DNA of 64,000 nucleotides from Dehalococcoidia bacterium (GTDB taxonomy: Bacteria; Chloroflexota; Dehalococcoidia; Bin125): NCBI GenBank assembly GCA_963662615.2, contig CAXXSR010000001.1, positions 1,632,001 through 1,696,000 of the forward strand, read 5' to 3'. The position numbers and the translations under genes were made by a program. The notes below the pieces were generated by a model. The model did not search any database, was not told the DNA's origin, and saw nothing but the letters and a program-made list of their open reading frames with translations. Below, piece after piece: positions 29,663 to 52,137 of the stretch. The number at the start of each line of letters is the position of its first letter. Position 1 is the stretch's first letter.

Positions 29663-29866
29663 CTAAGCCATGCGCTTCATTCCGGTCGGGCGCCGCCCAG
29701 ATGCGGATAAGTTTCTGGTTCCTTCCGCCGCTGCCATCCCGATCATCTCCGGCACCCGCTGTTCCAGCTCCTCCGCGAGGATGTGGTCGATGTACCGCTG
29801 CGTCACCGTGATGCTGGAGTATCCCAGCAGCCGAGCCACCTCGTGGATCTCGAGCCCCGACCTCAA
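29663..29866 (-). pseudogene. C-terminal fragment of a tyrosine recombinase
   Basis: EVARLLGYSSITVTQRY (box II-like). Confidence 0.6.
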
Positions 29867-29878
29867 CCAGCGCCACGC

Positions 29879-30361
29879 TCATTCGGGAAGCGCCCGATGA
29901 TTCACGAGCCAAGTCACCCGATCCATCAGCCAATGCTTCCGTCGCCGGGGAACGCCAACCTCCACGTACGCCACATGGGTCTTGCTGATCCGCGCCATCC
30001 AGAGACCCATGGGCCCGTCGGGGGCCTTCCCGCCGTCGCTGGGCTGGATGTCGAGCGAGTCATCCAGCAGCATAGGGTTCTTGTGAATCCACTGGCCGAC
30101 GGGTGATCGCCAGAATGCTTTCAGGTGCGCCGCCTTACGCTGTTCCCGTTGTGCTTTTTTCCATCGGTCCGTCCGCCCAGCGATGAACTCGTCGCTGTGC
30201 CGTTTGCGCACTTCCATCCCAATGAGGCCGATGACGCAGGCCGCGATGATCAGCCCGCCGATCGTCCCGATCAGAATGTCCGCGCGCGAGGGTTCCATCA
30301 GGAACCCCCCCGCCAGGAAGGCAATGGCTGCCACGAGAACGGCGACCAGGACACCCTGCAT
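29879..30361 (-). CDS. hypothetical membrane protein
   Basis: Two N-terminal hydrophobic helices. Confidence 0.4.
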   Translation of the reverse strand: MQGVLVAVLVAAIAFLAGGFLMEPSRADILIGTIGGLIIAACVIGLIGMEVRKRHSDEFIAGRTDRWKKAQREQRKAAHLKAFWRSPVGQWIHKNPMLLDDSLDIQPSDGGKAPDGPMGLWMARISKTHVAYVEVGVPRRRKHWLMDRVTWLVNHRALPE

Positions 30362-30490
30362 CCCGTCAGGCTAGCCATCCTTGGGCTAAAAGTGGATATA
30401 ATTCCCCTATACAAGGCCCCACCGAACGGGCTGCTGGACGGCATCCACGGACGGGTGACTACAGCCCAAGCTCATTGCTGCCGCCGTGCG

Positions 30491-30561
30491 GAACACGCGC
30501 CGAGAGCTGCAAGCTCAAACGGTGCCCACGCCACGCGACTTCACGCGGATCGCACGCGACG
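30491..30561 (+). repeat. 71-bp copy of serine recombinase gene segment 51876-51946
   Basis: 68/71 identity by manual alignment. Confidence 0.9.
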
Positions 30562-30744
30562 CCGGTCCAGTACTCTGGGACATCCTTGCTGGGCGTCCCC
30601 CCACTGACCGCTCTCGCGAGAAGTCCCATTCGGCGCTGGTCCCAATGCGCCGGGGTCTCCCCCAACCACTCGACGCCGGAGTTCTTTGTACTCGGAGTAG
30701 GGCTTCCAGCGGCTCGCAGCCGCCTCAGCGTCGCTATCGCTCAT
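30562..30744 (-). pseudogene. hsdS: type I RM HsdS N-terminal remnant
   Basis: WKPYSEYK/(frameshift)SGVEWLGETPAHW...SGGTPSKDVPEYW. Confidence 0.75.
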
Positions 30745-32800: not shown

Positions 32801-33099
32801 ACGTTAGCGATCGAACTCATCGGCGAGGTTGCCGATGAGATCCGCAGGCGCTTCCAGGACACCTCAGGACAGGGCGCGACGACCGAGTTACACCGCCAAG
32901 GTGATCCTCGCCAGCGTGCGCGCAGCACCAGCTCCTCCTCAGCGAGGAAGCGCGATCTCTATCCGGAAGGGGATCCCATCTGTACTCACCACTGGACGAA
33001 CATCGGGATGTGTGTTCAATCCGGGCGAAAGAATGGTTGGTGTCCCCTTCGCGATCAGCCTGAGCGCTGGGCTCCAAGAACAGCCTCGCAGCCGGGTTA

Positions 33100-33469: not shown

Positions 33470-33731
33470 AGCGTCGATCACCGGTCTGGATCGCCGTCGC
33501 GGCGGGCACTGACGTGGGCTCTGCGGGAGATCCGAGCGAATCGGTTCAGCCCGGCTTGGAGAGTCAGCGGTATCTGCGCGGAATGCGTAACGGGGCGGGC
33601 GGCGAGACGATGAAATTCGGATGCGGCCCTTATGTGCGCGCGCCGCTGGATGAGGTGACAATCGACCCTTCGACGTGGTTTGCTGATTGTGAGGTCGCAG
33701 AGCAGTACACGCGACCAGCGAGAGGGTGGGG

Positions 33732-36700: not shown

Positions 36701-37037
36701 GCCCCGCGCGGAGGAGCTGGCTGAGGTTGCGATCGACAGACTTCGTGAGCGAGGTGAGCGTGAGGAGCGCGACCTCCGCGGGATCCTCGAGCGTCACCGG
36801 AAGCGTGTAGCGGAGGAGCTGGAGAAGCAGGAGGATCAACCGCTTCAGCTTCGCCTCGGCTTTGGCGAGGAGGAGAGACGCCAGCGGGAAGCCGACGTGC
36901 GTTCCTGGCGCATTCGGTTGGAGCAGTTCGACCGTGACCTCGACGAGGAGCCGCAACGTGTCCGTGACTTCTACGAGGTCCGCGCCAGGCGGGTGGAGCC
37001 GATCGGGCTCGTCTATCTCTGGCCGGACACGAACTGA
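33732..37037 (+). CDS. drmD: DISARM SNF2-like helicase
   Basis: ADDTGLGKT, DEAHH, SATPHNG, REGLN, EQRNGRIDR; first gene of canonical order. Confidence 0.88.
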   Translation: MTTASRAQSLPTVAPDVGQLVHVRSRRWLVEEIVPPASPGDSCLVRLACADDDAQGQSLDVYWDYELDRRVLEEEGWQDLASQGFDDPRQFAAFLHTLQWNCVTATDPNIFQAPFRAGIKIDAYQMEPLRKALRLPRVNLFIADDTGLGKTIEAGLIARELLLRKKVKTIVVAAPASVIEQWKGEMEDRFGLVFEILDRAYLTKMRRERGFGVNPWRTHSRFLISHSLLIDPTYADPMREWLGPLLPGSLLILDEAHHAAPSSGGRYGIETKFTRAVRDLSGRFEHRLFLSATPHNGHSNSFSTLLELLDPYRFTRGVKVRGKRELDDVMVRRLKDDIRAIQGGFPVRVVQRVVIDGLPEDAPELVLSRLLDEYRTVREERHAAASRKAQASAGLLIVGLQQRLLSSTEAFARSLKVHRQTVKRHWEKESTTAVPESKTADEDARLFTMAPDVDDERGVWTDNQLDAEEDDQIESITSAAEAGTARDKAAVDLWNREQELLDEMEEVAEATRHLPEAKARRLIDWIRENMCPDLPPFGKSPTESRPAWNARRVLIFTENREGTKRYLRTILEQAIEGTDRADERIEVIDGLTSSTRRKEIQRRFNADPAKDPLRILLATDAAREGLNFQAHCADLFHFDLPWNPGRIEQRNGRIDRKLQRAPEVRCHYFALPQRVEDRVLRVLVRKTETIKKELGSLSKVIDDDIERQLRGGIRHRDVDRLARELEQADLDEERKRITNEELESARDRQEDLKQQIERCQTLLERSREWVGFAPEPFRDALSCSLKLIGAEPLTESRDDDGNLVWTFPPLDRRAETDASWAATLDTLRAPRKTNEKLAEWRREAPIRPIVFQDAGVLSDDTVHLHLEQRVAQRLLARFRSQGFIHHDLSRACLAQTADSVPRVILLGRLSLYGRNAERLHEEIVPLAARWVEPSRRQTPLRAYARAAETRTLDLLEASLDRGGSEPNETVRGKILASAARDVEELRPQLEPRAEELAEVAIDRLRERGEREERDLRGILERHRKRVAEELEKQEDQPLQLRLGFGEEERRQREADVRSWRIRLEQFDRDLDEEPQRVRDFYEVRARRVEPIGLVYLWPDTN

Positions 37038-40000
37038 TGGCCACACTCGATCCACAAATCGCCGCGCATCTCGAATGGATTGGCTTTGTGCGGCCGACGG
37101 GTCTCGTCGTCTCCGCGCCTGCTCTCGTGCGGGCCGGTGCCATCCTGGACCGAAACGATGCGGAGGGTCAGCGCTTCCTCCGGGAGAACGTCGAGCAGCG
37201 AGAGTTCGACCCGGCGGAAGGCTCCACTGCGTGGGCCCCGAGCTTCCACGCGTTCGCTTCCACAGTGCTGGGTTGGAACTTCTCTCCTACAGGATACGCC
37301 GGGAGCGAAGAAAGCCCGATCCCCGCCGACCTTGAGGTGCCGCTTCCCGACTATGGGACGACGCTTCGACCTGATTTCGTGGTCCGGGAGCTCGACGCAG
37401 CTGCGGGCGACGTGCCCTGGCAGCTCCTGGTCCGTGTGCTTGAGGCCGGCCAGGACTTCGATACGACCATTCGCGGGGATGGGAACCTCGAGGCCTCGGC
37501 TCACGGGCGCATGGAGCGGCTCTTGCGGCGAACCGGCGTTCCCGCTGGGCTCCTCTTCAATGGCCGGGCGCTTCGCCTGGTTTCCGCGCCCCGCGGTGAA
37601 AGCTCGGGTTGGATCGACTTCTGCGTCGACGACATGGTCCAGACCGCTGGGCGGCCTATTTGCACCGCACTGCGATTGCTCCTGGGGCAGACGCGCCTCC
37701 TAAGTCTCCCCAGGGCACAGCGCCTGACCGCCCTCCTTGAGGACAGCCGCAAGTTTCAGAACGAGGTCAGTGAGCGCCTGGCCGAACAGGTCCTGCACGG
37801 CCTCTATGACCTGCTGCGTGGATTCCAAGCAGCACATGACGCCTCCGGCGGCGAGTTGCTACGGGAACCGCTGCGCGAGAATCCTGACGAGGTCTACCGC
37901 GCCTTGCTGACGGTGACCCTCCGGCTCGTCTTCCTGCTCTACGCCGAAGAGCGCGACATGCTCCCAGGGGATGAAGCCTTTCAGAAGTACTATTCGCTCG
38001 CGGGGCTCCACGCTCGGCTCCGAGAAGATGCCGCGCTCTTCCCCGACACAATGGAGCAGCGGTACGGCGCCTGGCCGCAACTCCTCGTTCTCTTCCGAAT
38101 GGTCTTCGACGGGGCCGAGAGCGGGGAGATGCGCTTGCCGCAACGACACGGTGTGCTCTTTGATCCGGACCGCTTCCCCTTCCTCGAGGGGCGGCCCGCG
38201 GCGGACTCGCGGCAAATCGACGGGCGGATCGAACCTCCTCTCGTGCCAGACGGCACGATCTATCGAGTTCTCGAGAACCTGCTTGTGCTCGACGGTGAGC
38301 GCATCTCCTACCGCGCTCTTGACGTGGAACAGATCGGCTCCGTCTACGAGACGATGATGGGCTTCCGCCTGGAGCAAGCGACCGGCCGCTCCGTGGCGAT
38401 CAAGGCGTCGAAGAGGCATGGCGCGCCGACGACCATCAATCTCGAAACGCTCCTCGCGGAGTCACCGGCCGCGCGGGAGAAGTGGGTGAAGGATCAAGCC
38501 GATCGGGCGTTGACGGACAAGGTCAACAAAGCGGTCAAGGACGCCGTGACCCTCGATGACCTGCATGCGGCGCTCGATTCCGTGGTGGATAGGCGCGCCA
38601 CCCCGGACCTCATACCCGTGGGGGCGATGGCCTTACAACCGAGCGAGGAACGACGTAGGTCCGGTTCCCACTACACTCCCCGGACGCTGACTGAGCCGAT
38701 CATCCGCACGACCTTGGAGCCCATCCTCAAGAGACTGCGAGGCGAGGAGGATCGGCCACCGATGCCGGCGCAGATCCTAGAACTCAAGGTCTGCGACCCG
38801 GCAATGGGCTCAGGCGCATTCCTCGTCGAGGCTTGCCGCCACCTCGGAGATGCCTTGATCGAGGCCTGGCGTTTCCACGACCAGTTGCCCAGCATCCCAC
38901 CAGACGAAGATGAAGTGGTCCTGGCGCGCAGGCTGATCGCGCAGCGTTGCCTCTACGGGGTGGACAAGAATCCTGTCGCAGTTGACCTTGCCAAGATGTC
39001 GCTCTGGCTCGTCACGCTTGCCCGCGACCATCCCTTGACCTTCCTGGATCACGCGCTGCGGCACGGCGACTCACTCGTTGGGCTTTCGCGCAAGCAGATC
39101 GAAGCCTTTCACTGGGATGGGGACGCGCCCCGCTTTCAGGCGGGGCTTGAGATCATGCAGGTTCGCGAACATGTGGCGAGAGTCACGAATCTGCGCCGGC
39201 GAATCCGTGAGGCGGACGAGAGCGTCCAGGACTGGCAACTGCGCGACCTCTGGAACGAGGCGCAGATGGAGCTCGGGAATATCCGCTTGTTCGGCGACCT
39301 GGTGCTTGCGGCCTTTTTCGAGGAAGAGAAGCCCAAGGAGCGAGAACGGAAGCGAAACGAGTACGCCACGTCCGTTCTCGCCGGCGAGACGGAGGGCAAC
39401 CGCGAACGGCTCGATGGCTGGAGGGACGCGACCCTGCCGCTCGTTCCCTTCCATTGGGAGATCGAGTTCCCGGAAGTCTTCGAAAGACGCGCGCCTGGGT
39501 TTGATGTCTTCGTCGGGAACCCGCCGTTCGCGGGCAAGAACAATCTCGCGAGTGCGAATCTCGCTGGATACGCTGATTGGCTCAGGCAGTCGCATGAAGG
39601 GAGCCACGGAAATGCTGATCTCGTGGCCCACTTCTTCCGTCGCGCCTTTGATCTCCTGAGGGAGGGCGGGGCCTTCGGCCTGATCGCCACGAACACCATC
39701 GGACAGGGCGATACGCGCTCGACAGGGCTCCGCTGGATCTGCGAGCACGGTGGCGATCTTTTCGCCGCGCGGAAGCGCCTCATCTGGCCCGGTCTCGCTG
39801 CTGTGGTGGTGAGCGTAATTCACGGGACCAAGGGACGCTTTTTCGAGCAGCGATGGTTGGACGATCGGCCAGTGGAGATCATCACCGCATTCCTCGCTGA
39901 TCGAGGTCCACACAGTGATCCCAGCAGCCTTTCTGCGAACGCCAGCCTAGCCTTCGTCGGTAATTATGTACTTGGAGACGGGTTCATCTTCGACGATTCT

Positions 40001-40972
40001 AAACCTACGCGCTGGCCGGTCTCGGCAGGTTCTGAACTACTTGTGAATCCGCACAACAGAGAGGTTCTCCGCCCGTACCTCACGGGGGACGCCTTGAATT
40101 CCTTGCCGGATTCGATACCGTGCGAGATTGTCATCGATTTTGGGAATCGCGACGAGGAGGCCGCGAGGGAGTGGCCTGAGCTCATAGCGCTGGCAGAGGA
40201 GCGAGTAAAACCGGGCCGGGAGAAGTACAAAGGGGCGATGCGGGAGAAGTGGTGGCTCCACGCGCGCAGTAAAGCGAGTTTCTACACGAGCGTTCGCCCA
40301 CTTGAGCGCGTGATCGTCACTAGCCAAACAAGCCCTCGCTGGTCATTCACGCTAGTAGATTCAGCTTGGACCTATGACCAGACGGTTACGGTGATCTTGT
40401 CCGATTCACATGCCATGTTCGCCATCCTCAGCTCTCGATTGCACGAGGCCTGGGCTCGTTTCGTCGGGTCGTCGATGAAGGACGATCTTCGCTACACGCC
40501 GTCCGACTGTTTCGAGACCTTCCCCTTTCCCGAGGACTGGGAGACTCATGCGGCGCTGGAGGAGGTGGGCAAGGCCTACTACGCGTTCCGCGCGGATTCG
40601 ATGGTCAAAAACAACGAGGGCTTGACCAGGACATACAACCGCTTCCATCACCCAGACGAGCGCGACCCTGCCATCCAGGGATTGCGCGAGCTCCACGCGA
40701 CCATCGACCGTGTCATGCTCGACGCCTACGGCTGGAACGACATCCCAACCGATTGCGAGTTCCTCCTCGACTACGAGATCGACGAGGAGGAGTGGGGCCG
40801 CAAGAAGAAGCCTTACCGCTACCGCTGGCCCGATGACGTCCATGATGAAGTGCTGGCTCGGCTGCTTGAGCTAAACGCAGCTCGTGCGAAAGAGGAAGTG
40901 TGGGCCGGAGTCACGACCGAAAAGCCGAAGAGCCGCCGGAAGAAGGCCGCTAAGCAAAGGGAGCTCATCTAG
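37037..40972 (+). CDS. drmMI: DISARM class I adenine methyltransferase
   Basis: GSHYTP, DPAMGSGAF, GNPPF; position after drmD. Confidence 0.85.
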   Translation: MATLDPQIAAHLEWIGFVRPTGLVVSAPALVRAGAILDRNDAEGQRFLRENVEQREFDPAEGSTAWAPSFHAFASTVLGWNFSPTGYAGSEESPIPADLEVPLPDYGTTLRPDFVVRELDAAAGDVPWQLLVRVLEAGQDFDTTIRGDGNLEASAHGRMERLLRRTGVPAGLLFNGRALRLVSAPRGESSGWIDFCVDDMVQTAGRPICTALRLLLGQTRLLSLPRAQRLTALLEDSRKFQNEVSERLAEQVLHGLYDLLRGFQAAHDASGGELLREPLRENPDEVYRALLTVTLRLVFLLYAEERDMLPGDEAFQKYYSLAGLHARLREDAALFPDTMEQRYGAWPQLLVLFRMVFDGAESGEMRLPQRHGVLFDPDRFPFLEGRPAADSRQIDGRIEPPLVPDGTIYRVLENLLVLDGERISYRALDVEQIGSVYETMMGFRLEQATGRSVAIKASKRHGAPTTINLETLLAESPAAREKWVKDQADRALTDKVNKAVKDAVTLDDLHAALDSVVDRRATPDLIPVGAMALQPSEERRRSGSHYTPRTLTEPIIRTTLEPILKRLRGEEDRPPMPAQILELKVCDPAMGSGAFLVEACRHLGDALIEAWRFHDQLPSIPPDEDEVVLARRLIAQRCLYGVDKNPVAVDLAKMSLWLVTLARDHPLTFLDHALRHGDSLVGLSRKQIEAFHWDGDAPRFQAGLEIMQVREHVARVTNLRRRIREADESVQDWQLRDLWNEAQMELGNIRLFGDLVLAAFFEEEKPKERERKRNEYATSVLAGETEGNRERLDGWRDATLPLVPFHWEIEFPEVFERRAPGFDVFVGNPPFAGKNNLASANLAGYADWLRQSHEGSHGNADLVAHFFRRAFDLLREGGAFGLIATNTIGQGDTRSTGLRWICEHGGDLFAARKRLIWPGLAAVVVSVIHGTKGRFFEQRWLDDRPVEIITAFLADRGPHSDPSSLSANASLAFVGNYVLGDGFIFDDSKPTRWPVSAGSELLVNPHNREVLRPYLTGDALNSLPDSIPCEIVIDFGNRDEEAAREWPELIALAEERVKPGREKYKGAMREKWWLHARSKASFYTSVRPLERVIVTSQTSPRWSFTLVDSAWTYDQTVTVILSDSHAMFAILSSRLHEAWARFVGSSMKDDLRYTPSDCFETFPFPEDWETHAALEEVGKAYYAFRADSMVKNNEGLTRTYNRFHHPDERDPAIQGLRELHATIDRVMLDAYGWNDIPTDCEFLLDYEIDEEEWGRKKKPYRYRWPDDVHDEVLARLLELNAARAKEEVWAGVTTEKPKSRRKKAAKQRELI

Positions 40973-43900
40973 ATGGCCAAGACCGGAACGGACGACGCCC
41001 CCGCGACGACCTCCTTCGAAGTGCGAGCCAGCCTGGTCCAGGCGTTGCACCTTGACCTGGTTGGGCCGGGCTCGGATCACGAACTCGCTGAGGAGCGGCT
41101 ACCTGGTTGGGTGCGACCATCGAATTGGTATTTAACCGGTTTTCTGATCCCGTCGGGCACGCCACCTGAACAGGCCGCCGACACAGACGAGGGTGAAGAT
41201 CTGGACGAAACGCCGGAATCCGCCGGCCTCGCCGAAGAGAGCTCGGAGGACCGCAAGGCCGCCAAGCGAGGTTTCTTCCCGTCCTCCATGGGCTTGAGCT
41301 TCCTTGTGCCGGCCGGTGCGCAGACCCTTCAAGTCCTCGTGAGTTGGGGTGACTACACGGCGGAGGAAATCGAAGGCGAGGACCGGAAGTCGTCGTCCGT
41401 CTGGCAGCGGCACCCGCGGGAGCAGACGGTTGATGCCTCCCTTGGCGCTGGCGGGGGAGCGCCATGGGTCGTCCCCCTGCCAGACTCTGGCGGTCTCGAG
41501 CTAAACATCGTCGAGCGGGCGGTGTCGGTCGTGGACCTCGAGGGGCAGATCCCTGCGGGTACTCGGTCCATCTCCCTCTTCCTCGTGAACCACCGACCGC
41601 CGCTCGAGGCCAGGCTCGACGAGGCCTTCGTCTTCCAGCCGCAGCTCGACGTGCGGTGCGAGGTTCCCTTCGTGCCCCGGCCTGACCTTCGCGGCGCCTC
41701 CCCCGAGGATTGGGACGAGCAAGTGGCTGACCTGCACTACGCAGATGTGCCGGCATACGCCACAGGCCACAGTGTTTCGGCGGAGTGGGAAACGGCGGAC
41801 GGCGCGTGCCGCCTCCTGCGCACCGCCTGGATCCCCAGCGCCGAAGTCGAGAAGACCAGCACTGTCGAGCTTCCCGGCGTCGAACTGTCAATGAACGTCC
41901 TCGGAGTCTTGGAGGGTGGCCCTGCCGTTGAAAAGGCCTTGGCCCCATTGGTCGAACGCTACCGGACCTGGATCGAGGAACGGCGAGACGAGACCGCACA
42001 ACTCGCCGGGACCCGCCGTGACACGGCTGATCAGCTTCTCAGCTCCGCTTCATTCGCGGCCGACCGCATTGAGCGTGGGATCGCCGTCCTTGCCGAGGAC
42101 CCCGACGTCCTCGACGCGTTTCGGGTCGCGAACCGGGCCGTGGCCCGCGCCCTGCAGAAGCGCCTCGACGTCGAATCGCCGCAGTGGCGAGCCTTCCAAC
42201 TCGCTTTCGTCCTGCTCAACCTGCCCGGCATGGCCGACCCAAGCGACCCCAATCGCGACACAGTAGACCTGCTCTTCTTCCCGACCGGCGGGGGCAAGAC
42301 GGAGGCGTACTTTGGGCTCGCCGCCTTCGCGATGGTGCTGCGGCGGCTGCGTCATCGGGGGTCTCCCGCGGGCGTTGGGGTCAGCGTCATCATGCGCTAC
42401 ACCCTCCGGCTCCTCACACTGGACCAACTCAGCCGCGCGGCCGGACTCGTCTGTGCTTTGGAACTGGAGCGCGACCAGGATCCCATCTCTTACGGCGAGT
42501 GGCCCTTCGAGATCGGATTGTGGGTGGGTAAGGCTGCGACGCCAAACGTGCTTGGCCACAAAGGCGACGGACGGTCAGACTCCGCGCGCAGCAAGGTGCG
42601 CCAGTTCAAGAGCGATCCACGCAACAGGCCTTCACCAATCCCGCTCGAAAACTGCCCCTGGTGCGGGGAGTCTTTCAAGCCCGAGTCGTTTGAGCTTCGG
42701 CCAGACGACGACCGACCCCGTGAGCTACGGATCGTCTGCATGAACTTCGAGTGTGACTTCACCCGGGATCGCGCGCTGCCGATCGTGGCCGTCGACGAGC
42801 CCATCTATCGACGCTTGCCTGCCTTCCTGATCGCGACCGTCGACAAGTTCGCCTCGCTGCCTTGGGTTGGGCAGGCCGGCGCGCTCCTTGGCGGCGCGGA
42901 TCATCACGATTCAACGGGGTTCTATGGCGCCGCGGACCCGGGCAGCGGTACCCGCCTCGACACGCCCCTCCCCCCGCCCGACCTCATCATCCAGGATGAA
43001 CTCCACCTGATTTCTGGCCCGCTCGGCACCATGGCGGGGTTGTACGAGACGGCCATCGAGGCCCTCTGCGTGCGCCAGCTCGAGGGGCGCGCCGTCCGGC
43101 CCAAGATTGTCGCCTCGACCGCGACGGTGCGCCGTGCCCCCGATCAAATCCAGGCACTCTTCGGGCGGGCGTCCACCCAAGTCTTCCCACCTCCCGGGCC
43201 GGGACGCCGGCACTCGTTTTTTGCCAAGACGCTCTCGCCGACGGAGGTCCCTGCCAGGCTGTATCTCGGAGTTGCTGCGCAGGGTCGTAACCCAAAGGAG
43301 GTCCTCCGGAAGACGTGGCTCGCGCTGATGGGTGCCGCGCAGCGGGCCTACCGCGACGCGGGCGGCCACCAGAATGAAGCAAATCCTGCCGACCCCTATA
43401 TGACGGTCCTGGGGTACTTCAACAGCCTGCGCGAGTTGGGCGGCTGCCGCCGCATCCTCGAGGAGCAGGTCCAGAACACGATCAAGGCATACGGCGGCCG
43501 CAAGCGGGTCGGCGAGGATCGCGGGCTCTTCCGTGACCGGAAGACCTTCTCTGAGGTGGTCGAACTGACCTCCCGCGTCCCGACCAACAAGGTGGCGGAG
43601 GCGCGGCGCCGCTTGGAGGCCCGCTTCCACGAGAAGCAGCGTGTGGACTGTGCGATCGCGACGAACATGATCTCGGTCGGGCTTGATATTCAGCGGCTGG
43701 GACTGATGGTGGTGCAGGGCCAGCCCAAGACCACGTCCGAGTACATTCAGGCGACGAGTCGCGTGGGCCGAGACGAGGAGCGCCCTGGGCTCGTCGTCAC
43801 GCTGCTCAACATTCACAAGCCGCGGGATCGATCCCACTACGAGCGCTTCCGCCACTACCACGAGACCTTTTACCGCTCGGTCGAGGTGAGCAGCGTCACA

Positions 43901-44371
43901 CCGTTCTCTGCCCGCGCACTGGATCGCGGCTTCGCTGGTGCATGCGTTGCACTGGCGCGGTACGCCGAGCCGGCGCTGGCACCGCCGCGCGGTGCCGAGC
44001 AGATCGCGGCGGTCCGAGTTTCCCTAGAGATGCAGCTCCTCGACGCATTCCTTGAGCGGGTCCGGCAGCAGCCGATCGAGGACGCAGACGAGCTGGAGGA
44101 ACGCTTACGCAGTGTGCGAAACCGGACCGTGGATCTGCTCGACTCCTGGCGGGCGGTCTTCGACGAGTACCTCGCTGACGGAGTGGCGCTGCAGTACCAG
44201 AAGTACGAGCTGGACGGTCCTCGGCCACTCCTGCGCGACATCCTCGACCGAGATTTCGAGTCGGAACACCACCGAAAATTCCGTGCTAACCGGTCGCTTC
44301 GCGACGTGGAGCCGGAGGTCAACTTGTTTCTCCATGACCTCAACGGCAGGCAGGTGGACGCCGGGCCATGA
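40973..44371 (+). CDS. drmA: DISARM helicase
   Basis: PTGGGKTEAY, QDELH, ATNMISVGLD, QATSRVGR. Confidence 0.88.
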   Translation: MAKTGTDDAPATTSFEVRASLVQALHLDLVGPGSDHELAEERLPGWVRPSNWYLTGFLIPSGTPPEQAADTDEGEDLDETPESAGLAEESSEDRKAAKRGFFPSSMGLSFLVPAGAQTLQVLVSWGDYTAEEIEGEDRKSSSVWQRHPREQTVDASLGAGGGAPWVVPLPDSGGLELNIVERAVSVVDLEGQIPAGTRSISLFLVNHRPPLEARLDEAFVFQPQLDVRCEVPFVPRPDLRGASPEDWDEQVADLHYADVPAYATGHSVSAEWETADGACRLLRTAWIPSAEVEKTSTVELPGVELSMNVLGVLEGGPAVEKALAPLVERYRTWIEERRDETAQLAGTRRDTADQLLSSASFAADRIERGIAVLAEDPDVLDAFRVANRAVARALQKRLDVESPQWRAFQLAFVLLNLPGMADPSDPNRDTVDLLFFPTGGGKTEAYFGLAAFAMVLRRLRHRGSPAGVGVSVIMRYTLRLLTLDQLSRAAGLVCALELERDQDPISYGEWPFEIGLWVGKAATPNVLGHKGDGRSDSARSKVRQFKSDPRNRPSPIPLENCPWCGESFKPESFELRPDDDRPRELRIVCMNFECDFTRDRALPIVAVDEPIYRRLPAFLIATVDKFASLPWVGQAGALLGGADHHDSTGFYGAADPGSGTRLDTPLPPPDLIIQDELHLISGPLGTMAGLYETAIEALCVRQLEGRAVRPKIVASTATVRRAPDQIQALFGRASTQVFPPPGPGRRHSFFAKTLSPTEVPARLYLGVAAQGRNPKEVLRKTWLALMGAAQRAYRDAGGHQNEANPADPYMTVLGYFNSLRELGGCRRILEEQVQNTIKAYGGRKRVGEDRGLFRDRKTFSEVVELTSRVPTNKVAEARRRLEARFHEKQRVDCAIATNMISVGLDIQRLGLMVVQGQPKTTSEYIQATSRVGRDEERPGLVVTLLNIHKPRDRSHYERFRHYHETFYRSVEVSSVTPFSARALDRGFAGACVALARYAEPALAPPRGAEQIAAVRVSLEMQLLDAFLERVRQQPIEDADELEERLRSVRNRTVDLLDSWRAVFDEYLADGVALQYQKYELDGPRPLLRDILDRDFESEHHRKFRANRSLRDVEPEVNLFLHDLNGRQVDAGP

Positions 44372-46161
44372 GCAAGCGCGCACACGGCCAGATTCGACGG
44401 AGCCAAGTCATCACCACGTGGGGCCCCGGTGCGCTCCTGGATCTCCCCCGCCACTCGGCGATCGTCGGGGGCTTGGACACCTGGCCCCGAATCAACGACC
44501 TCGAGGAGATCGTGGAGCCATTCCTGTCGCGAAAACTTCAAGAGATGACGGGCGTTGCTGCCCCGCGCTTATACGCTCCACCGGCGGACTCGAACGACCC
44601 CCGGGAGCCGAAGCAGGGCATCACGGTCTACCGCTTTCCGGAGTGGTTCATCGTCCAAGAGGCCGCGGGCGAAGACGGACGCCAGCGCTCCCGACGCCTC
44701 GTGTCCCGGCGCGCCCTCGATGAGCGGGGAAAGTTCGACGGGCACCTGGTCGTCGCGACCCGGTTCGTGCGGGGGTGCCCGCGAGGACACGTGGACGATC
44801 TCGATTGGCCTACGTTCGTCCATGGCCCCGGGGACGGCTGTCATCGCCAGCTCTGGCTGGACGAGCGGGGGACCAGCGGAGACCTGGGCGAGAACGTCGT
44901 GCGCTGTGAATGCAAACGGACGCGCGGGATGCACGAAGCGATGCTTCTCGAGGACAATCCGCTGGGTACGTGTCGCGGCACGCGCCCCTGGCTCGGACTG
45001 CATTCCAAGGAGGACTGTACGCTGCCCAGCCGCCTTCTCACCCGGACAGCCGCCAACGCCTACTTCCCGCAAGTGGTCAGTGTGCTCTCGCTCCCAGACC
45101 AGGGATCGGCCGTCCAGGGGGTAGTGCGAGCACTCTGGGACGATCTGCAGATCGTAGACACCGTCGACCAGCTCGCGTTTCTCAAGAAAAAGCCTCAAAT
45201 CGCAGATCTGCTCTCGCCGTTCAGCAACGACGAGGTCTTCGAGGCGATCGGCGTGGTCAAAGGTGGGCACGACGACGAGCGACCCGTTAAACACGTGGAG
45301 ATCGAAGCGATACTCGCCGCTCCCGAGGGCTTCGGGGACGACGTCCCGGTCGACCCGAACTTCCATGCACGGCGCCTGCCAGACGCAGCCTGGCGCCAGT
45401 TCTCTCGGAGCGACGGAATCGAGAGCGTCACCCAGCTCCATCGATTGCGAGAGGTCCTCGCCCTCAGCGGCTTCACCCGGTTCGAGGCGGAAGTACCCGA
45501 CATTCACGGCGAGTACGACAGCGATGTGCAGCGTGCGGAGCTTGCCCTGGAGCCCCAGTGGTTCCCCGCCGTCGAGAATCGCGGCGAGGGACTCTTCGTC
45601 CAGCTTCGTGCCACGGCCCTGCAGAGCTGGCTTGAGCAGCCGGGTGTCCAGGACCGACTCGATCACCTCACGACCGGCCATGACAGATGGATCAAGGACC
45701 GCAAGAGTAAGAGACAGTTCCCCGGCGGGCCGTACATTCTCCTGCACACGCTGTCGCATCTTCTGATGGAGTCGCTCTCGATGCGCTGCGGCTATCCAGC
45801 GAGCTCGATCCGCGAGCGGATCTATGCGGATGCAGCGGGGCAACGCTTCGGCGTCTTGCTCTACACGGGTAGCCCAGACGCAGAAGGCACACTCGGAGGG
45901 CTCGTCCAAGAAGCGCGTCATTTTGAGGCCCATCTTGCCTACGCGCTGCGGATGGGGGCGCTGTGCTCCAACGATCCGATTTGCGCAGAACACGCCCCTG
46001 GAGAAAGTTTGGAAGAACGCTGGCTCCACGGTGCCGCCTGCCACGGCTGTGCGCTGGTCGCGGAGACGTCATGCGAGATGCGCAACGACCATCTCGATCG
46101 CGCACTCCTCGTCCCCGTCCTGGGAGTCTCGGATGCGGCGTTCTTCGAGACCGTGGAATGA
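44368..46161 (+). CDS. drmB: DISARM DUF1998 protein
   Basis: RSQVITTWGPG; LHTLSH; GTLGGL; CSNDPIC...ACHGC...ETSCE. Confidence 0.88.
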   Translation: MSKRAHGQIRRSQVITTWGPGALLDLPRHSAIVGGLDTWPRINDLEEIVEPFLSRKLQEMTGVAAPRLYAPPADSNDPREPKQGITVYRFPEWFIVQEAAGEDGRQRSRRLVSRRALDERGKFDGHLVVATRFVRGCPRGHVDDLDWPTFVHGPGDGCHRQLWLDERGTSGDLGENVVRCECKRTRGMHEAMLLEDNPLGTCRGTRPWLGLHSKEDCTLPSRLLTRTAANAYFPQVVSVLSLPDQGSAVQGVVRALWDDLQIVDTVDQLAFLKKKPQIADLLSPFSNDEVFEAIGVVKGGHDDERPVKHVEIEAILAAPEGFGDDVPVDPNFHARRLPDAAWRQFSRSDGIESVTQLHRLREVLALSGFTRFEAEVPDIHGEYDSDVQRAELALEPQWFPAVENRGEGLFVQLRATALQSWLEQPGVQDRLDHLTTGHDRWIKDRKSKRQFPGGPYILLHTLSHLLMESLSMRCGYPASSIRERIYADAAGQRFGVLLYTGSPDAEGTLGGLVQEARHFEAHLAYALRMGALCSNDPICAEHAPGESLEERWLHGAACHGCALVAETSCEMRNDHLDRALLVPVLGVSDAAFFETVE

Positions 46162-46940
46162 CCGCGGCCCTCTTCGGTCTCCCGGCGCATCGGCGGAGGC
46201 GGCTTGTGGAAGCCCTTCAGTCGGGTCAGCTCTCTACGCCTTATTCCCCCACTTCGCTGCGATCAGTCCTCGGGCTGCGCGAGGGGGGCGAGGCCGTGCT
46301 CGATGCCCTGGGGGAGTTGGAAGGGATGAGCATCACTGGACGGGCCGCGGCGGCCTGGATTCGCGCCGTTGATGAGGCAGTCGATCGGCTGCCGCGGCCG
46401 GATCTCGTCTGGTCAGGCCCGGAGGTACTCGGGCTGCACGCCCGCGACACGCGGCGCGTGTACGAGGAGCTTCTGGGTGCGGCGGAGGACTCGATCTGGG
46501 CGTGCAGTTACGCCTACTTCGATGGTCGGCGCGCCTTCGAGGCGCTGGCGCGCCGGATGGACGAGAAGCCCGAGTTACGTGTGACGCTACTGCTCAACAT
46601 TCAGCGCCGACGCGGGGACACGACGACGGCGGAGCAGCTGGTGCGGAAATTCGCGGATCGCTTCTGGGGCACGGATTGGCCCGGCTCGTCCCGGCCGAGG
46701 GTCTTCTACGACCCGCGCTCGCTTGAGCCCGATGGTCCCGCTGGGGTCTTGCACGCGAAGGCCGTGGTAGCGGACGACAGGGCGGTCTTCGTGACATCCG
46801 CCAACCTCACCGAAGCGGCGCTCGACAGAAACATTGAGATCGGTCTGCTGGTTCGCGATCCGGCGATCGCCGCTACCGTCTCGACGCACTTCCGCACACT
46901 GGTCGAACAACGCTTGCTGCTCCAGTTGCCTGGGGACTAA
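46158..46940 (+). CDS. drmC: DISARM phospholipase D-like nuclease
   Basis: LHAKAVVAD (HKD), SANLT, NIEIG. Confidence 0.88.
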   Translation: MTAALFGLPAHRRRRLVEALQSGQLSTPYSPTSLRSVLGLREGGEAVLDALGELEGMSITGRAAAAWIRAVDEAVDRLPRPDLVWSGPEVLGLHARDTRRVYEELLGAAEDSIWACSYAYFDGRRAFEALARRMDEKPELRVTLLLNIQRRRGDTTTAEQLVRKFADRFWGTDWPGSSRPRVFYDPRSLEPDGPAGVLHAKAVVADDRAVFVTSANLTEAALDRNIEIGLLVRDPAIAATVSTHFRTLVEQRLLLQLPGD

Positions 46941-47011: not shown

Positions 47012-47962
47012 TGACCTGCCCCCCCAGAACCGGTCCAGATCCTGTGCGAGGATTCGGGCCGGTGCGAAGGGAGTCGGCATGGCACGCAAGCGGTACGCGG
47101 CCGAGGAGATCATCAGCAAACTGCGGGAGGCGGAGGTGGTGCTCGCGCAGGGGGAATCGGTCGCGCCGGTCGCGCGCCGCCTCGGCGTGGCCGAGCCAAC
47201 GTATTACCGCTGGCGGCGGGAGTACGGGGGGCTGCGGGTCGACCAGGCCAAGCGGCTGAAAGAACTGGAGCGCGAGAACAGTCGGCTGAAGCGGTTGGTG
47301 GCCGATCAGGCGCTGGACAACGCGATGTTGCGGGGCGTCGCAGCGGGAACCTGCTGAGCCCGGCCAAGCGGCGCCGGGCGACATCCTCCCGCACGGACCC
47401 GTACGCGGTGTCGGAGCGGCGGGCCTGCCGGGTCACCGGCCAGGCGCGGGCACCGCAGCGCTACGTGCCCCGGCCGTCCCCGGATGAGCCGGCGCTGATC
47501 GCGCGCATCGTCGCGCTGGCCACCCGCTTCGGCCGCTACGGCTCCCGCCGCATCACGGCCCGGCTGCGCCAGGCGGGCTGGCGGGTGAACCCCAAGCGGG
47601 TCGAGCGGCTCTGGCGTCAGGAAGGCTTGCGGGTCCCCGGGAAGCACCCCAAACGGGGCCGCCTCTGGCTCGCGGCCGGCTCGCTGGTGCGGCGGCGGGC
47701 CGAGCGGCCGAACCACGTCTGGTCCTACGACTTCGTCTTCGACCGCACCGCCGCTGGGCGCCCGGTGCGGATCCTCGCCATCGTGGATGAGTACACCCGC
47801 GAGTGCCTGCGTCTCGACGTCGCCCGCCGACTGCGCAGCGACGACGTCCTGGCGCGGTTGGCCCAGCTGTTCGTCGAGCGCGGGCCGCCGACGTTTCTGC
47901 GGTCCGACAACGGCCCGGAGTTCACCGCCACCGCGGTGCGGGACTGGCTGCACCGGGTCGGG
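47012..47962 (+). mobile_element. IS3-family element, 3'-truncated
   Basis: IR at 47012; orfA 47079-47357; orfB stops matching the 17964-18783 copy at 47962. Confidence 0.88.
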
Positions 47963-49255
47963 CTCCCGCCCGAGACTGGCGCGCAGTCGCGCCGGAGGCG
48001 GGAACGGACTAAGGGAAGATCGGCACTCCACGACCCTATACCAGATGGGAAGATCGGCACTCAGCTTGAGCTTTCTCTGGATGGGTTGGACGTGTCGCCG
48101 GTCTCGAAGGAGAAGCGCAAGCGCGCGGCTAAGAGACCAGCCCGACACGACGAGCTGTTCGATCTCTACCAGCGTCGGATCGCCGGCCGCGTCGCACCCG
48201 CGACAGTGACGAAGTACGCCTGGACGCTCGAACAGTGTCTTCGTCTGGCCGAGGAGCGAACCTCCCGGCCGGTGAGCATAGCGATGCTGTTGACTGACGG
48301 AACGGCGCTGGGATACGTCTGTTCCACGACTCGACGCCCTGGTGGCGGACTCCCCATCTCGGCATGGACCGCCGCGCATAGAAGGACGGTCTTGCGGTCC
48401 GTGGCCGGGACTCTCGCACCGGAACTCAGGTCTTTGGGCCTGAACGACGCGATCCAACACGTCGATCTCGCGATCCGGCGAGTGGCCGAGAGGGTGGGCG
48501 GTGGATCTCGCTTGCCGGTCGGAACGACGCGGAACAGAGGCCGGCCCGTGCCGTCGACGGCGGAAGTGAGCTCGCTACTGAACGTCGTAGGAAGCGACGA
48601 AGGCTGGGCTGGTCAGCGAAATGCGCTGTTCTACGGAATCCTCGCCGCGACGGGCACGCGCGTCGGCGCACTTCTTGTACTGGATGGCCAAGACTTGTGT
48701 CTGACTCCGGACGGTGCCGTCCGGCTTTCTCTCCACGACAAAGCCTCCGGTGGGCGGTTCGAGCTGGAACTTCCGGATCGCTTCCACGCACCGCTAGATG
48801 CCTACTTCGAGGCTACCAATCTGTCGCTCACCGGTCTGGGAAAAGGGCGAGTCGGGTTCGGGAGATTAGGCCCTGTTTGGCGCGGTCCAACGGGCGATCG
48901 ATGGCCAGCCGCCCAGATGCGCCGCCGCTTGCGAGCGGCCTGCCGCACGGCTGGGATAGAGGACTACACGCCGCATTCGTTCAGAGCCTACTTCGCCACG
49001 CAAGCGACCAACGTCGCGTCGCGCCGAGTCGCGGCCCTTGCCGGAGGCTGGCGGGGGACCGAGCGAATGGATGACCACTACGTCGGAGTCAAGCGCGATT
49101 CCATCGAGCGGAAGCTCGCCCAGATCGGCGTATCCGACAGAAGCCAACGCGGCTCCCGTCGTCGCCCGGCGGTTGAACAGCCTCATATGTCGCCCGCCGC
49201 AACTACACCGACGGCGGGTGCAGATCTCATTGCGAAGATCCGGTCGCGCCAATGA
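47963..49255 (+). CDS. Cre-like tyrosine recombinase A, right module (in frame with IS orfB; native start unclear)
   Basis: ATGTRVGAL, HDKASG, TPHSFRAY, AGGWRGTERMDDHY; homologous to 12845-14068. Confidence 0.78.
   Translation, partial: LPPETGAQSRRRRERTKGRSALHDPIPDGKIGTQLELSLDGLDVSPVSKEKRKRAAKRPARHDELFDLYQRRIAGRVAPATVTKYAWTLEQCLRLAEERTSRPVSIAMLLTDGTALGYVCSTTRRPGGGLPISAWTAAHRRTVLRSVAGTLAPELRSLGLNDAIQHVDLAIRRVAERVGGGSRLPVGTTRNRGRPVPSTAEVSSLLNVVGSDEGWAGQRNALFYGILAATGTRVGALLVLDGQDLCLTPDGAVRLSLHDKASGGRFELELPDRFHAPLDAYFEATNLSLTGLGKGRVGFGRLGPVWRGPTGDRWPAAQMRRRLRAACRTAGIEDYTPHSFRAYFATQATNVASRRVAALAGGWRGTERMDDHYVGVKRDSIERKLAQIGVSDRSQRGSRRRPAVEQPHMSPAATTPTAGADLIAKIRSRQ
48013..48062. repeat. 16-bp direct repeat GGGAAGATCGGCACTC x2 (48013-48028, 48047-48062)
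   Basis: Read directly. Confidence 0.85.
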
Positions 49256-50277
49256 CAGCGCTCCAACCCGATCTGTTGAAGTCCAAGCGTGCGTCGCTCG
49301 ACGAAGACTCCGAACGGTTGCTGACGACCTACACGCAGGCACGGCTCGACGAGGGAGCAGCCGCATCGACCGTGTCGTCTGAGCGCTCCCAGCTCAGGAG
49401 CCTGCTACGGGACTCGATCGAATCCGGCAAGGCCAGGACCCTCGCTGAGCTGGTGATGGACCCGTCGAGCGCCGCATCCGCGCTGACCTGCCCCACAGGT
49501 TCACCGGGCAGGGCGTCGATGCAGACGAGACTTCGCGCCTTCCAGCGGCTCTCGGGGCTCGGAGTTTCCGACGCGGAACGCAGGGCACGCCTCGAAGTCT
49601 TGGATGGGTCCCTCCCTTCCCGGCGCAGCCGAGGGTGGCACGACGCCGGTATCGCCGTCGCTGGACTACGGGGAACAGGACGGTGTAGAACTTCGACGAT
49701 CGATCCATCAGCGCTGGAGGCGATCGTTCTCGGGAGCGGTGTCCGAGCGAACGACGATTCCGCCCTTCTGGGCGCGCTCTGCTTCAGCGGCCTGCGCGTC
49801 GCGGAGGTTCGCATGCTGCGCTGGGGAGATCTGATCTGGAACGGCGCGGCAGAATCCTGGGAAGCTTCGGTCCAGCGTACCGGGAGACGTGGCCTGCGGT
49901 TTCTCATCGTTGGACCCGGTGCCCAAACCATGACGAATTGGAGACTTGAATCGCGCGCCGACGACGACCAAGCTGTCTTCGGCGCGCGGGACTCCGGGAA
50001 ACCCCTATCGGCGCGTGGCTTCCGACGGCGCGTGGACTTCGCTCTAACTCAGGCTGGGCATCCCTCGACCCGGCATTCCCAGATTCAGTCGGCGTTCGCG
50101 GGCTGGCTCTCCGCGTCCGGCTTCACGGACCACGAGATCAAAGTGGTGATGGGGCGCCGGGAGGTCAGATCGGTTGACCGGCTCCTGTTCGCTCACCGGG
50201 CGTTGGCGGCGCAGCGGCAGCTTGCCGAGCAAATGGAGGGTGCGCCCCTTGGCTCGGGCTCGATCGGGAGCCATTGA
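49252..50277 (+). CDS. tyrosine-recombinase-fold protein B, predicted catalytically dead
   Basis: SGLRVAEV retained; HxxR replaced by SQIQ; MGRREVRSVDRLL lacks H and Y; ATGA overlap with A. Confidence 0.75.
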   Translation: MTALQPDLLKSKRASLDEDSERLLTTYTQARLDEGAAASTVSSERSQLRSLLRDSIESGKARTLAELVMDPSSAASALTCPTGSPGRASMQTRLRAFQRLSGLGVSDAERRARLEVLDGSLPSRRSRGWHDAGIAVAGLRGTGRCRTSTIDPSALEAIVLGSGVRANDDSALLGALCFSGLRVAEVRMLRWGDLIWNGAAESWEASVQRTGRRGLRFLIVGPGAQTMTNWRLESRADDDQAVFGARDSGKPLSARGFRRRVDFALTQAGHPSTRHSQIQSAFAGWLSASGFTDHEIKVVMGRREVRSVDRLLFAHRALAAQRQLAEQMEGAPLGSGSIGSH

Positions 50278-50341: not shown

Positions 50342-50578
50342 ATGGATGTGACGCTCAATGGGAAGCGCTACTCGATGACGAAAGCGGATGTGGAGCGGGT
50401 CGTCGACGAGGCTCCGGACTCGCCGCGACGATACGTCGTGAAAGTCAAACGAAAGCGCTACCCGATCAAACAGGCCGCAAGTGCGGGCCTCGGTGTGCCG
50501 CCCGTCGCGTTCACTTCCCAGCAGGCGTACCAATGGCTCTCGCGACTCGACTTCGACGTGATCGATCTGAAGGGCTGA
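50342..50578 (+). CDS. small basic putative DNA-binding protein (resembles SCO5918 family)
   Basis: YPIKQ...FTSQQA...LSRLDF; TTGAGG-17-GATAAT promoter-like sequence and purine-rich RBS upstream. Confidence 0.6.
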   Translation: MDVTLNGKRYSMTKADVERVVDEAPDSPRRYVVKVKRKRYPIKQAASAGLGVPPVAFTSQQAYQWLSRLDFDVIDLKG

Positions 50579-50583
50579 CGACC

Positions 50584-52137
50584 ATGCGAGCACTCGTCTA
50601 CTGCCGCGTGTCGACCGATGCCCAAGAGCGAGATGGCACTTCCCTCGATACTCAGGAGCGGGCGGCCGTCAAGGTTGCGCGCGAGTCCGGCTATTCGGTG
50701 ACCGAAACGGTCCGCGACACCGCGAGCGGATTCACGCTCGAACGGCCGGGAATCGAACACGTCCGGCGTCTGCTCAGGGCCGGCGCCGTCGACATCGTGC
50801 TGGCCTACGCCGTCGACCGATTGTCCCGCAACCAGAACCACATCGGTGTCCTCTTCGACGAGGTCGCTCAAGCTGGGGCTCAACTGGAGTTCGTGACGGA
50901 GGACTTCGAGGACACGGCGATCGGCCGCTTCATCTTGGCGGCGCGCGCGTTCACGGCGGAGGTCGAGCGCGAGAAGATCGCCGAGAGAACGATGCGCGGC
51001 AAGGCGGAGCGCGCGCGGCGAGGGAAGCTCCCTCAGGGTACGGGCAAGGGGATGTACGGATACGCGTACGACCCGGATACCGGAACTCGACAGATTGTCG
51101 AGGCGCAAGCAGCGGTCGTTCGACGGATCTTCGAGGCGTTCGTCGCGGGTCGAGCGTGCAACGGGATCTCGAACGATCTGAACGGCGACGGTGTTCCTGC
51201 GTTCAGCGGCGGGCGCTGGTACGCGCTGACGATCCGTCGACTGCTCAAGAATGAAGCGTTCGCGGGACGAACGATCTACCGGCGGACCCGCGCAGATCGG
51301 GTGCGGGATGTGGCGCGCGGTCGCTGGACGCGGCGCATCGTGGAGCGGGACCAGTCAGAGTGGATTGAGGTCGCGGGAGCGACGCCGGTGATCATCGACC
51401 GAGGCCTGTTCGACGCGGCACAGAAGATTCTCGACGATCCATCTCGCCGCCCACAGACGGCTCCGTCAGACGTGTACCTGCTCCGGGGCCGGATCTCTTG
51501 CCGGGAGTGCGGTGCGAAGATGGTCGGCCATGCTTCGAATCGAGGGCGCTATCGCTACTACCGCTGCCCGAACGGCTCAAGCGGTCCGGGAGAGACATCG
51601 TGCTGCTCAAGGTACATCCGCATCGAGCGCCTTGAGGGCGCGGTGAAGACGGCCTTGACCGATCTGCTTGCTTCACCGGACCGGCTTCTTGGTGAGGCGA
51701 AGCGTCTCGCCAGACGTCAGCCGCAAGACGAGGACCTTGAGAAAGTGTTCCAAGCCTTAGGCGAGGTGGAGTCCGCTCAGGGAAGACTGGTCCGACTGTA
51801 TACGACCGAGGCGCTTCCCGAGCACCTGCTGCGCGAAGAATCTCGGGTCCTGTCTGAGCGGCGTGAGGTGCTGGAGAACACGCGCCGAGAGCTGCAAGCT
51901 CAAACGGTGCCCACGCCCCGCGACTTCTCGCGGATCGCAGGCGACGTACCAGCGGCACTCTCGGCCATCCGCAGTTGGGTTAAGGACGCGAGCGGGGACG
52001 ACTTCGATCTCATGCTGCGGGCTGTCGATGCACAGGTCAGAGCCTCACACGAAGGGGTCGAGATCGCGGGCGCCGTGCCGATCTTCCCAGATGGGGATCA
52101 GGCGGATTTCGCTACCATTGAACAAACATCGGCATGA
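50584..52137 (+). CDS. large serine recombinase (integrase), intact
   Basis: YCRVST, DRLSR, CRECG...YYRC; stop codon lies inside the att/dnaN overlap. Confidence 0.9.
   Translation: MRALVYCRVSTDAQERDGTSLDTQERAAVKVARESGYSVTETVRDTASGFTLERPGIEHVRRLLRAGAVDIVLAYAVDRLSRNQNHIGVLFDEVAQAGAQLEFVTEDFEDTAIGRFILAARAFTAEVEREKIAERTMRGKAERARRGKLPQGTGKGMYGYAYDPDTGTRQIVEAQAAVVRRIFEAFVAGRACNGISNDLNGDGVPAFSGGRWYALTIRRLLKNEAFAGRTIYRRTRADRVRDVARGRWTRRIVERDQSEWIEVAGATPVIIDRGLFDAAQKILDDPSRRPQTAPSDVYLLRGRISCRECGAKMVGHASNRGRYRYYRCPNGSSGPGETSCCSRYIRIERLEGAVKTALTDLLASPDRLLGEAKRLARRQPQDEDLEKVFQALGEVESAQGRLVRLYTTEALPEHLLREESRVLSERREVLENTRRELQAQTVPTPRDFSRIAGDVPAALSAIRSWVKDASGDDFDLMLRAVDAQVRASHEGVEIAGAVPIFPDGDQADFATIEQTSA
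52112..52137 (-). repeat. att site at island right boundary: recoded 3' end of dnaN
   Basis: CTACCATTGAACAAACATCGGCATGA. Confidence 0.9.

Follow-up and report, generated by a model that had tools for sequence, protein, structure and literature searches.

Why does the gene of a large serine recombinase (LSR) end inside dnaN, the gene of the beta sliding clamp, and why are the last codons of dnaN found again tens of kilobases away? These questions are raised by a 64,000-nucleotide (nt) stretch of DNA from a Dehalococcoidia bacterium (GenBank assembly GCA_963662615.2, contig CAXXSR010000001.1, forward-strand positions 1,632,001 to 1,696,000), which is called the window here and is numbered from its first letter. 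An earlier reading, made without database searches (the sequence-only reading), had proposed that a single island, inserted into dnaN at its 3′ end, supplies a synonymously recoded C-terminus. Our analysis suggests, with high probability, that the 3′ end of dnaN is the attachment site (attB) of a clade of LSRs, and that the window holds two tandem elements, A and B, each rebuilding the clamp tail. In outward order, the body of dnaN is followed by tail copy R, element B, tail copy M, element A, tail copy L and the host flank (Table 1).

On the minus strand, the stretches 10071-10096 and 52112-52137 share the sequence xTC ATG CCx ATG TTy GTT CAA TGG plus a stop codon, which encodes MPMFVQW. As had been described, the differences between them (CCC/CCG, TTC/TTT and TGA/TAG) are silent throughout. 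A 24-nt pattern spanning these left and right copies matched twice in the window, with 0 matches expected from 100 shuffles, and a looser 21-nt pattern matched three times, with a shuffle mean of 0.01. Thus, both copies pointed out before are real, but a third one had been missed. It lies at 32986-33009 on the minus strand and reads ATC CCG ATG TTC GTC CAG TGG TGA, with ATC instead of ATG as its first codon. The whole genome contains exactly three tail copies; none lies outside the window, and each is on the dnaN strand. The dnaN body joined to any of the three tails gives the identical 376-amino-acid (aa) protein, so that the claim of a synonymously recoded C-terminus stands. In an alignment of DnaN residues 3-372 with chain residues 3-364 of the E. 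coli clamp, M370-P371-M372 correspond to residues 362-364, which line the peptide-binding cleft. An Rfam scan of the window returned no RNA family, so the target is neither a tRNA nor a tmRNA gene. Upstream of dnaN there is a class-III aminotransferase gene (53384-54682, minus strand) and not dnaA, which places this dnaN outside the classical dnaA-dnaN context.

The recombinase that reaches into dnaN, IntR, is an LSR by its domains. The resolvase domain PF00239 was matched over 1-144/145 in IntR and over 2-144/145 in IntL, the second LSR of the window; Recombinase (PF07508) and Zn_ribbon_recom (PF13408) scored above cut-offs in both, the serine nucleophile motif R-V-S-T-D-A-Q is present in both, and the nearest solved relatives of IntR are serine integrases and resolvases. 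The true start of IntR is probably the ATG at 50584, because its homologue IntL begins at the equivalent residue. The last 26 nt of the IntR gene overlap dnaN in antisense. Its C-terminal codons, T-I-E-Q-T-S-A, are the antisense of the supplied tail, and its TGA stop consists of the dnaN ATC codon and the A of ATG, i.e. it is completed by dnaN sequence. Element B supplies the last seven dnaN codons and the stop (52112-52135), and at the core of tail R element DNA lies to the left and the dnaN body to the right. With these domains, the 26-nt overlap and a sole dnaN in the genome, the proposed LSR island in the 3′ end of a single dnaN was borne out.

To locate the crossover, attP was rebuilt by joining the inner flank at the far end of an element to that at its near end, and inverted symmetry was scored at every possible centre over the 20 innermost positions. 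For element B (right plus middle copy), 15 of 20 positions were symmetric with the centre at the CC of the Pro371 codon, compared with 4-7 at offsets of ±1 to 3, and a second short symmetric block was found further out. The peak stood at CC in 5/5 elements (B 15, G313 13, G206 13, G369 11 and G098 10 of 20; the last four are elements of other genomes, introduced below), while offsets of ±1 to 3 gave 2-7 of 20 across the five. The attP arms are inverted repeats that abut the 2-bp centre. Moreover, the tail copies end exactly at the Pro codon, with no further dnaN sequence beyond it, and the far copies in G098, G313, G206 and G369 begin with ATA, ATC or ATT and not ATG, which indicates that the base just before CC is element-derived. 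Because of the dyad symmetry of attP in five elements, and of a congener pair (G369/G534) described below, the crossover dinucleotide would be the CC of the Pro371 codon, the plus-strand GG of each tail copy. The crossover had been placed at or near the shared GGCATGA, and it can now be mapped to the initial GG of that motif (52131-52132). This point lies 5 nt before the IntR stop, so the integrated gene ends in host-derived bases; the open reading frame (ORF) of the excised form would have 577 aa, against 534 aa when integrated.

The same scores bear on the number of elements. According to the sequence-only reading, one 42-kb island with attL at 10071-10096 and attR at 52112-52137 was integrated in a single step by the recombinase of 50584-52137. 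The two outer copies do exist and bracket mobile and defence genes, and the GC content across 10-52 kb is slightly below that of the flanks. But pairing of the right with the left copy gave an attP with only 8/20 symmetric positions against 15/20 for right plus middle, a third copy sits at 32986-33009, a second and diverged recombinase module occupies the left end, and tandem arrays are common in the class. We therefore regard a single island as quite improbable, and the partner of the right copy as the middle one. The left copy, which had been taken for the displaced host end, is indeed a displaced host-type tail, but it belongs to the older element A, whose own recombinase had been overlooked.

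In the genus g50, an empty site is available for comparison. The dnaN of the island-free genome G534 ends with ATG CCC ATG TTC GTC CAG TGG. In its congener G369, the far tail copy reads ATT CCC ATG TTC GTC CAG TGG, which matches G534 exactly from CC as far as the stop codon, and the copy in use reads ATG CCG ATG TTT GTT CAA TGG, with four silent differences. Host-type codons thus begin right after CC and the dnaN body ends right before it, which confines the exchange to two bases, as for a serine recombinase. The dnaN of G534 and its upstream DNA are 90% identical to the dnaN contig of G369 up to the tail, and the 7.2 kb downstream of dnaN in G534 are syntenic (82% identity) with the DNA that follows the far copy on another contig of G369. 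The expectation that an island-free relative carries the displaced-type dnaN end and its flank therefore held in g50, the first ~1 kb aside. This comparison of sequences points to insertion of the homologous element in G369.

A dyad-symmetric attachment site around a 2-bp centre is the layout of serine recombinases, whereas the tyrosine type has arms separated by an overlap of 6-8 bp. The distinction matters here since each LSR of the window is preceded by two tyrosine recombinases, both of which have a homologue in the other module (41% and 36% identity). Possibly, then, the tyrosine pair integrates the elements at dnaN and the serine recombinase has another role, e.g. resolution or inversion. 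Both modules have retained the pair beside the LSR, in the 6.3-kb element of G098 a tyrosine recombinase likewise lies just upstream of the LSR, and tails R and M share eight identical bases (CCGATGTT) that might serve as a tyrosine-type overlap region. Nevertheless, the attP arms abut a 2-bp centre instead of flanking such an overlap, the G369/G534 comparison limits the exchange to 2 bp, the core is overlapped by the 3′ end of an LSR gene in every case, and the 6.9-kb element of G313 has an LSR and no Phage_integrase domain in the 5 other ORFs tested. An integrating tyrosine pair is improbable on these grounds, and the exchange would be catalysed by the LSR and not by the tyrosine recombinases.

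A search of 400 other genomes of the phylum (cut-off E<=1e-60) gave 13 non-self IntR homologues, of which four overlap a full, convergent dnaN (G272, G369, G098 and G313) and three adjoin or read through dnaN-tail remnants (G224, G272 and G376); for the other 6/13, no dnaN was found within the ±1.5 kb examined. With a profile of IntR homologues, a recombinase or its C-terminal remnant was detected beside dnaN at 11 of 104 dnaN loci from relatives and metagenomes. In locus L008 and seven metagenome cases (among 80 metagenome loci) the overlap of the ORF with dnaN is exactly the 26 nt found in the window. The tail mimic tracks the host lineage, being MPMFVQW in the class of the window, and MPMHVAR and MPMQVSG(G)R in G272 and G376, respectively. 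Second tail copies occur 6.3 kb (G098), 6.9 kb (G313) and 38 kb (G206) downstream, and on another contig in G369.

The exact 21-nt tail pattern was present at least once in 230 of 301 genomes of the class, and 57/301 had two or more copies when the table was counted by hand (a single match from the unpublished genome G613 enters these tallies only). Hence, of the view that dnaN is an unusual integrase target, one part holds, as no natural case was found in the literature (see below), and the other does not, as such targeting is common within the class. Arrays were taken from eight multi-copy genomes, one of them stopping at a contig end; in six, dnaN is followed on its own strand by the extra copies. 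G170 has 12 exact copies on several contigs, and at least five of them follow dnaN in a stretch of 36 kb (C28, 64-100 kb); the recombinase profile detected none in this 36-kb stretch. The displaced tail of G313 is itself followed by an older LSR remnant. As in islands known from the same class, discussed below, this is accretion with decay.

Rather than scars of recombination, the repeats could also be partial paralogues of dnaN, products of a local duplication of its end, or matches by chance, as some extra copies are not downstream of dnaN (upstream in G582; 120 kb away on the opposite strand in G003). This explanation is hardly credible, given that only 0.01 matches per window are expected by chance and the reversed pattern, used as a control, was absent from every listed genome of the 301, that the copies stop at the Pro codon, that recombinase 3′ ends flank them, and that the empty-site comparison is consistent with insertion.

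In the mechanism we propose, the attP of each element would include a copy of the last seven dnaN codons and the stop. Strand exchange at the CC of the Pro371 codon would swap the host tail for the synonymous copy of the element, and the old tail would be displaced to the far end of the element, leaving the clamp protein unaltered. Element B, with its LSR convergent with dnaN, would be the latest arrival, and tail M would also be the tail that served dnaN before B arrived. The module of element A has the opposite geometry, with the LSR at the far end reading through the displaced tail on the sense strand.

These two geometries are seen elsewhere. IntR and most of its relatives are convergent with dnaN, have final codons (…T-I-E-Q-T-S-A) antisense to the tail mimic, and take their TGA stop from a dnaN ATC or GTC codon and the A of ATG. 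IntL and the homologues of G224 and G376 lie at the far end of their element, and their reading frame runs through the sense strand of the tail in +1 (…H-A-D/H-…); IntL itself reads outward through tail L in this different frame. In best-aligned regions IntL is 53-57% identical to the co-directional homologues of G224 and G376 and 55-58% to the convergent pair of G272, and this similar identity to both orientations suggests that the geometry was reversed in the course of evolution. If attP is nearly palindromic, a flipped core dinucleotide may have been responsible.

Several observations weigh against the reading of two tandem, tail-rebuilding elements at a dnaN attB. The collections searched, in which the host genus is represented by one species, contain no island-free close relative, and the nearest DnaN, among the 80 metagenome loci, is 81% identical. 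The mandelate racemase/muconate lactonizing enzyme (MR_MLE) gene of the left flank has no orthologue near dnaN in 20 relatives, and no flank similarity was found at the dnaN loci of relatives. In the g50 pair, there is no homology over the first ~1 kb that follows the tail, synteny starting 1.08 and 1.01 kb downstream in the two genomes. In genus g25 (G098 compared with G086, G179 and G161) downstream synteny is not conserved, which fits a hotspot. Several inter-copy segments of other genomes lack a recognisable recombinase, and the extra copy of G582 is upstream of dnaN. Each module of the window also encodes two tyrosine recombinases. Finally, the near end of element A carries a remnant of a convergent-type LSR, whereas the LSR at the far end is co-directional, with no fourth tail copy between them, and the rebuilt attP of A is only moderately symmetric (12/20, with 10/20 at offset +3).

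Element A may thus be one co-directional element or a fusion of two; it is probably older than B and fixed. A fourth, degenerate tail copy that would split it was not found, either at <=3 mismatches in fixed positions or at the peptide level. The reading frame of its IntL gene is interrupted by one TAG (10405-10407), at a codon that specifies Gln in IntR. The remnant beside tail M was assigned by inspection of its reading frame and by likeness to the end of the G313 integrase, and the recombinase profile failed to detect this short piece. Together, remnant and tail M (32920-33010) are 86% and 80% identical over ~90 nt to the dnaN end and following sequence in G003 and in one metagenome contig, respectively. 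The flanks of tail M have no significant DNA similarity to those of the outer copies.

Element B appears to be mobile at present, since its LSR and both of its junctions are intact. It is present nearly identically in assembled contigs of three public runs; none of these contigs bridges 33006 to 52131 or carries a circle junction, which is uninformative either way on excision. Contig joints listed in these runs were rejected as repeat noise in appearance (short sides of 20-35 nt), and one joint with a 78-nt side is a 95-nt skip inside a multicopy insertion sequence (IS) region. A 217-nt contig from a sponge metagenome (run X1, record 8) matches the dnaN end exactly from 52125 rightward (52125-52267), followed by 74 letters that do not fit; it possibly stems from a close strain with a different tail or occupant.

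Table 1. Features of the dnaN locus, ordered by element
Feature	Position	Strand	Remark
dnaN (beta sliding clamp), 376 aa	52112..53242	minus	sole dnaN match in the 2.66-Mb genome
Tail copy R, attR of element B	52112..52137	minus	in use by dnaN; core plus-strand GG 52131-52132
Tail copy M, attL of element B	32986..33009	minus	core GG 33005-33006
Tail copy L, outermost displaced tail, attL of element A	10071..10096	minus	core GG 10090-10091; host flank to left
Element B, nearest dnaN	about 33007-52130
IntR, intact LSR, 534 aa from 50533	50533..52137	plus
Short tyrosine recombinase, B module	49252..50277	plus	36% identical to A counterpart
Long tyrosine recombinase, B module	47408..49255	plus	41% identical to A counterpart over 333 aa
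Complete class-1 DISARM, cargo of B	33726..46940	plus	PADLOC best hits, five adjacent genes with matching Pfam domains
drmD (SNF2)	33726-37037	plus	DISARM
drmMI (adenine methylase)	37037-40972	plus	DISARM
drmA	40973-44371	plus	DISARM
drmB	44368-46161	plus	DISARM
drmC	45963-46940	plus	DISARM
Left end of element B, P′ arm of attP	33007..33036		inverted repeat of 52101-52130
Element A	about 10092-33004
IntL, second LSR	10039..11586	minus	about 49% identical to IntR
Short tyrosine recombinase, A module	11824-12870	minus
Long tyrosine recombinase, A module	12845-14446	minus
Cargo of A overall	14466..32606	minus
GmrSD-like	30741-32606	minus	cargo of A
Type III restriction-modification (R-M) Res	27361-29592	minus	cargo of A
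Endonuclease-domain ORF with type III R-M Res	26494-27135	minus	cargo of A
Type III R-M Mod	23715-26561	minus	cargo of A
UvrD/GajB-like helicase	21569-23680	minus	cargo of A
Two IS3-type copies	17919-19655	minus	within element A
QatC-like	14466-16292	minus	cargo of A
Remnant (~66 nt) of older convergent serine recombinase 3′ end	32920..32985	plus	frame assignment in text
Two divergent MR_MLE genes	7213-8406; 8668-9894	minus; plus	host flank left of the array

The MR_MLE gene nearest the array had been read as a convergent enolase gene left of 10071; it encodes an enzyme of the enolase superfamily, but not enolase. Within element B, an IS3-type HTH_21/rve segment (47088-47930) accounts for the N-terminal ~240 aa encoded by the ORF of the long tyrosine recombinase, and the contig depth of this segment in public runs is 10-100 times that of its neighbours, which indicates a multicopy IS. 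At the left end of B starts the C-terminal part of a short-chain dehydrogenase (33008-33469, plus strand; adh_short_C2 positions 167-234 of 236), a gene truncated at the very edge of the element. Within element A, a 71-nt piece (30491-30561, plus strand) is identical at 68 of 71 positions to IntR codons ~447-471 (51877-51947), which is too similar for an old paralogue; it stands alone between the GmrSD-like gene and an unannotated stretch. Directly upstream of IntL lies a 60-aa ribbon-helix-helix-like ORF with a weak RHH_5 match (11586-11768, minus strand), possibly a regulator or directionality factor.

In other genomes, the small dnaN-inserted elements of G098 and G313 encode a phage replisome organiser (replication genes at L123 7504-8808 and 5987-6862) and a Rep_trans-like protein (L124 4286-5446), respectively; these elements of 6-7 kb look like integrative plasmids or satellites. 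At L036 (G272:C73), a convergent-type recombinase adjoins a 13-codon dnaN end (YLHVIMPMHVAR and stop) that includes body-side codons but no dnaN body; it has the look of an attR left stranded or of a mimic of greater length.

The mechanism itself is the ordinary one of serine integrases and is already known. What is new is the target, an attP in the integrase's own end opposite the clamp-tail mimic, the occurrence of two orientations, and a use of the site that extends across the class. Phage LSRs (SPbeta SprA/YokA, TP901-1 and the 500-aa 'Integrase' 9iu2) have the same Resolvase, Recombinase and zinc ribbon domains, and the dyad symmetry computed here agrees with the family rule of a ~50-bp attP with a 2-bp centre. 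The sequence matches to them are distant only (best E 1e-10 to 1e-11). Many characterised phage LSRs split their target gene (sigK, spsM, comK), whereas the target is rebuilt here and attP overlaps the integrase stop codon. The SSV1 integrase, a tyrosine recombinase with attP inside int, has its gene split into two large parts; as in SSV1, the crossover lies inside the integrase ORF and integration alters the integrase 3′ end, but here the enzyme is a serine recombinase and the exchange affects no more than the last 5 nt. Recombinase-in-trio (RIT) elements carry three tyrosine recombinases, and the conserved row of three recombinase genes at an element end resembles them. Membership in RIT was rejected, as each module has two Phage_integrase proteins and one serine recombinase.

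In staphylococci, SCCmec is integrated at the 3′ end of rlmH (orfX) by the serine recombinases CcrAB, whose genes are co-transcribed neighbours. Common to both cases are a serine recombinase, a housekeeping protein gene whose 3′ end is kept intact, and tandem or composite elements. The present case differs in its target gene and in having two LSRs at opposite ends of two elements. Integration by CcrAB is also discussed in a study of ssrA islands in Dehalococcoides (McMurdie et al. 2011, PMC3146451), which is the closest parallel in the same class. There, DsiB, a serine recombinase of ~540 aa, lies at the island edge, and islands, some without integrases, are stacked in tandem downstream, i.e. 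accretion with decay. Both systems use the 3′ end of a single-copy essential gene, with a serine recombinase at the edge, a short direct repeat of the target end bounding each island, and tandem stacks; direct repeats of the target 3′ end at the borders and an integrase at one border are found in the window. Unlike those islands, which target a tmRNA gene, the elements described here target a protein-coding gene, so the repeat must also preserve the reading frame and the stop. Moreover, no second small serine recombinase like DsiA was seen here, where two tyrosine recombinases stand beside the LSR, and the core lies within the integrase's own last codons. The word dnaN occurs nowhere in PMC3146451.

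No natural case of dnaN as an integrase target was found in the literature searched, which did not cover the data tables of integrase and island surveys; these may list dnaN. Neither Durrant et al. 2022, in its main text, nor two TIGER/Islander papers mention it, data tables not included. The sole match for dnaN and integrase was an engineering paper in mycobacteria.

A wider possibility, which we consider unlikely, is that the dnaN end is the main site of island accretion in Dehalococcoidia, as tRNA and tmRNA genes are elsewhere, served by a clade whose attP lies in its own last codons, antisense to the tail mimic. If so, one 21-nt stretch would serve at once as clamp C-terminus, integrase C-terminus and integrase binding site. 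Integration and excision would rewrite the integrase C-terminus, which could sense the state of the element and bias directionality. Since attP is nearly palindromic, core flips would give rise to relatives of opposite orientation and would explain the co-directional recombinases of the window, G224 and G376.

Within the literature searched, the dnaN end is a previously undescribed hotspot in an essential replication gene, at which DISARM, R-M and GmrSD-like genes accumulate. The repeated clamp tail is a simple sequence handle for mobile islands in Dehalococcoidia and other Chloroflexota. Dehalococcoidia include organohalide respirers for which there are few genetic tools, and the clade provides an integrase whose landing site is defined, conserved and harmless. 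The locus also shows, on a small scale, how three constraints can act at once on the same piece of DNA.

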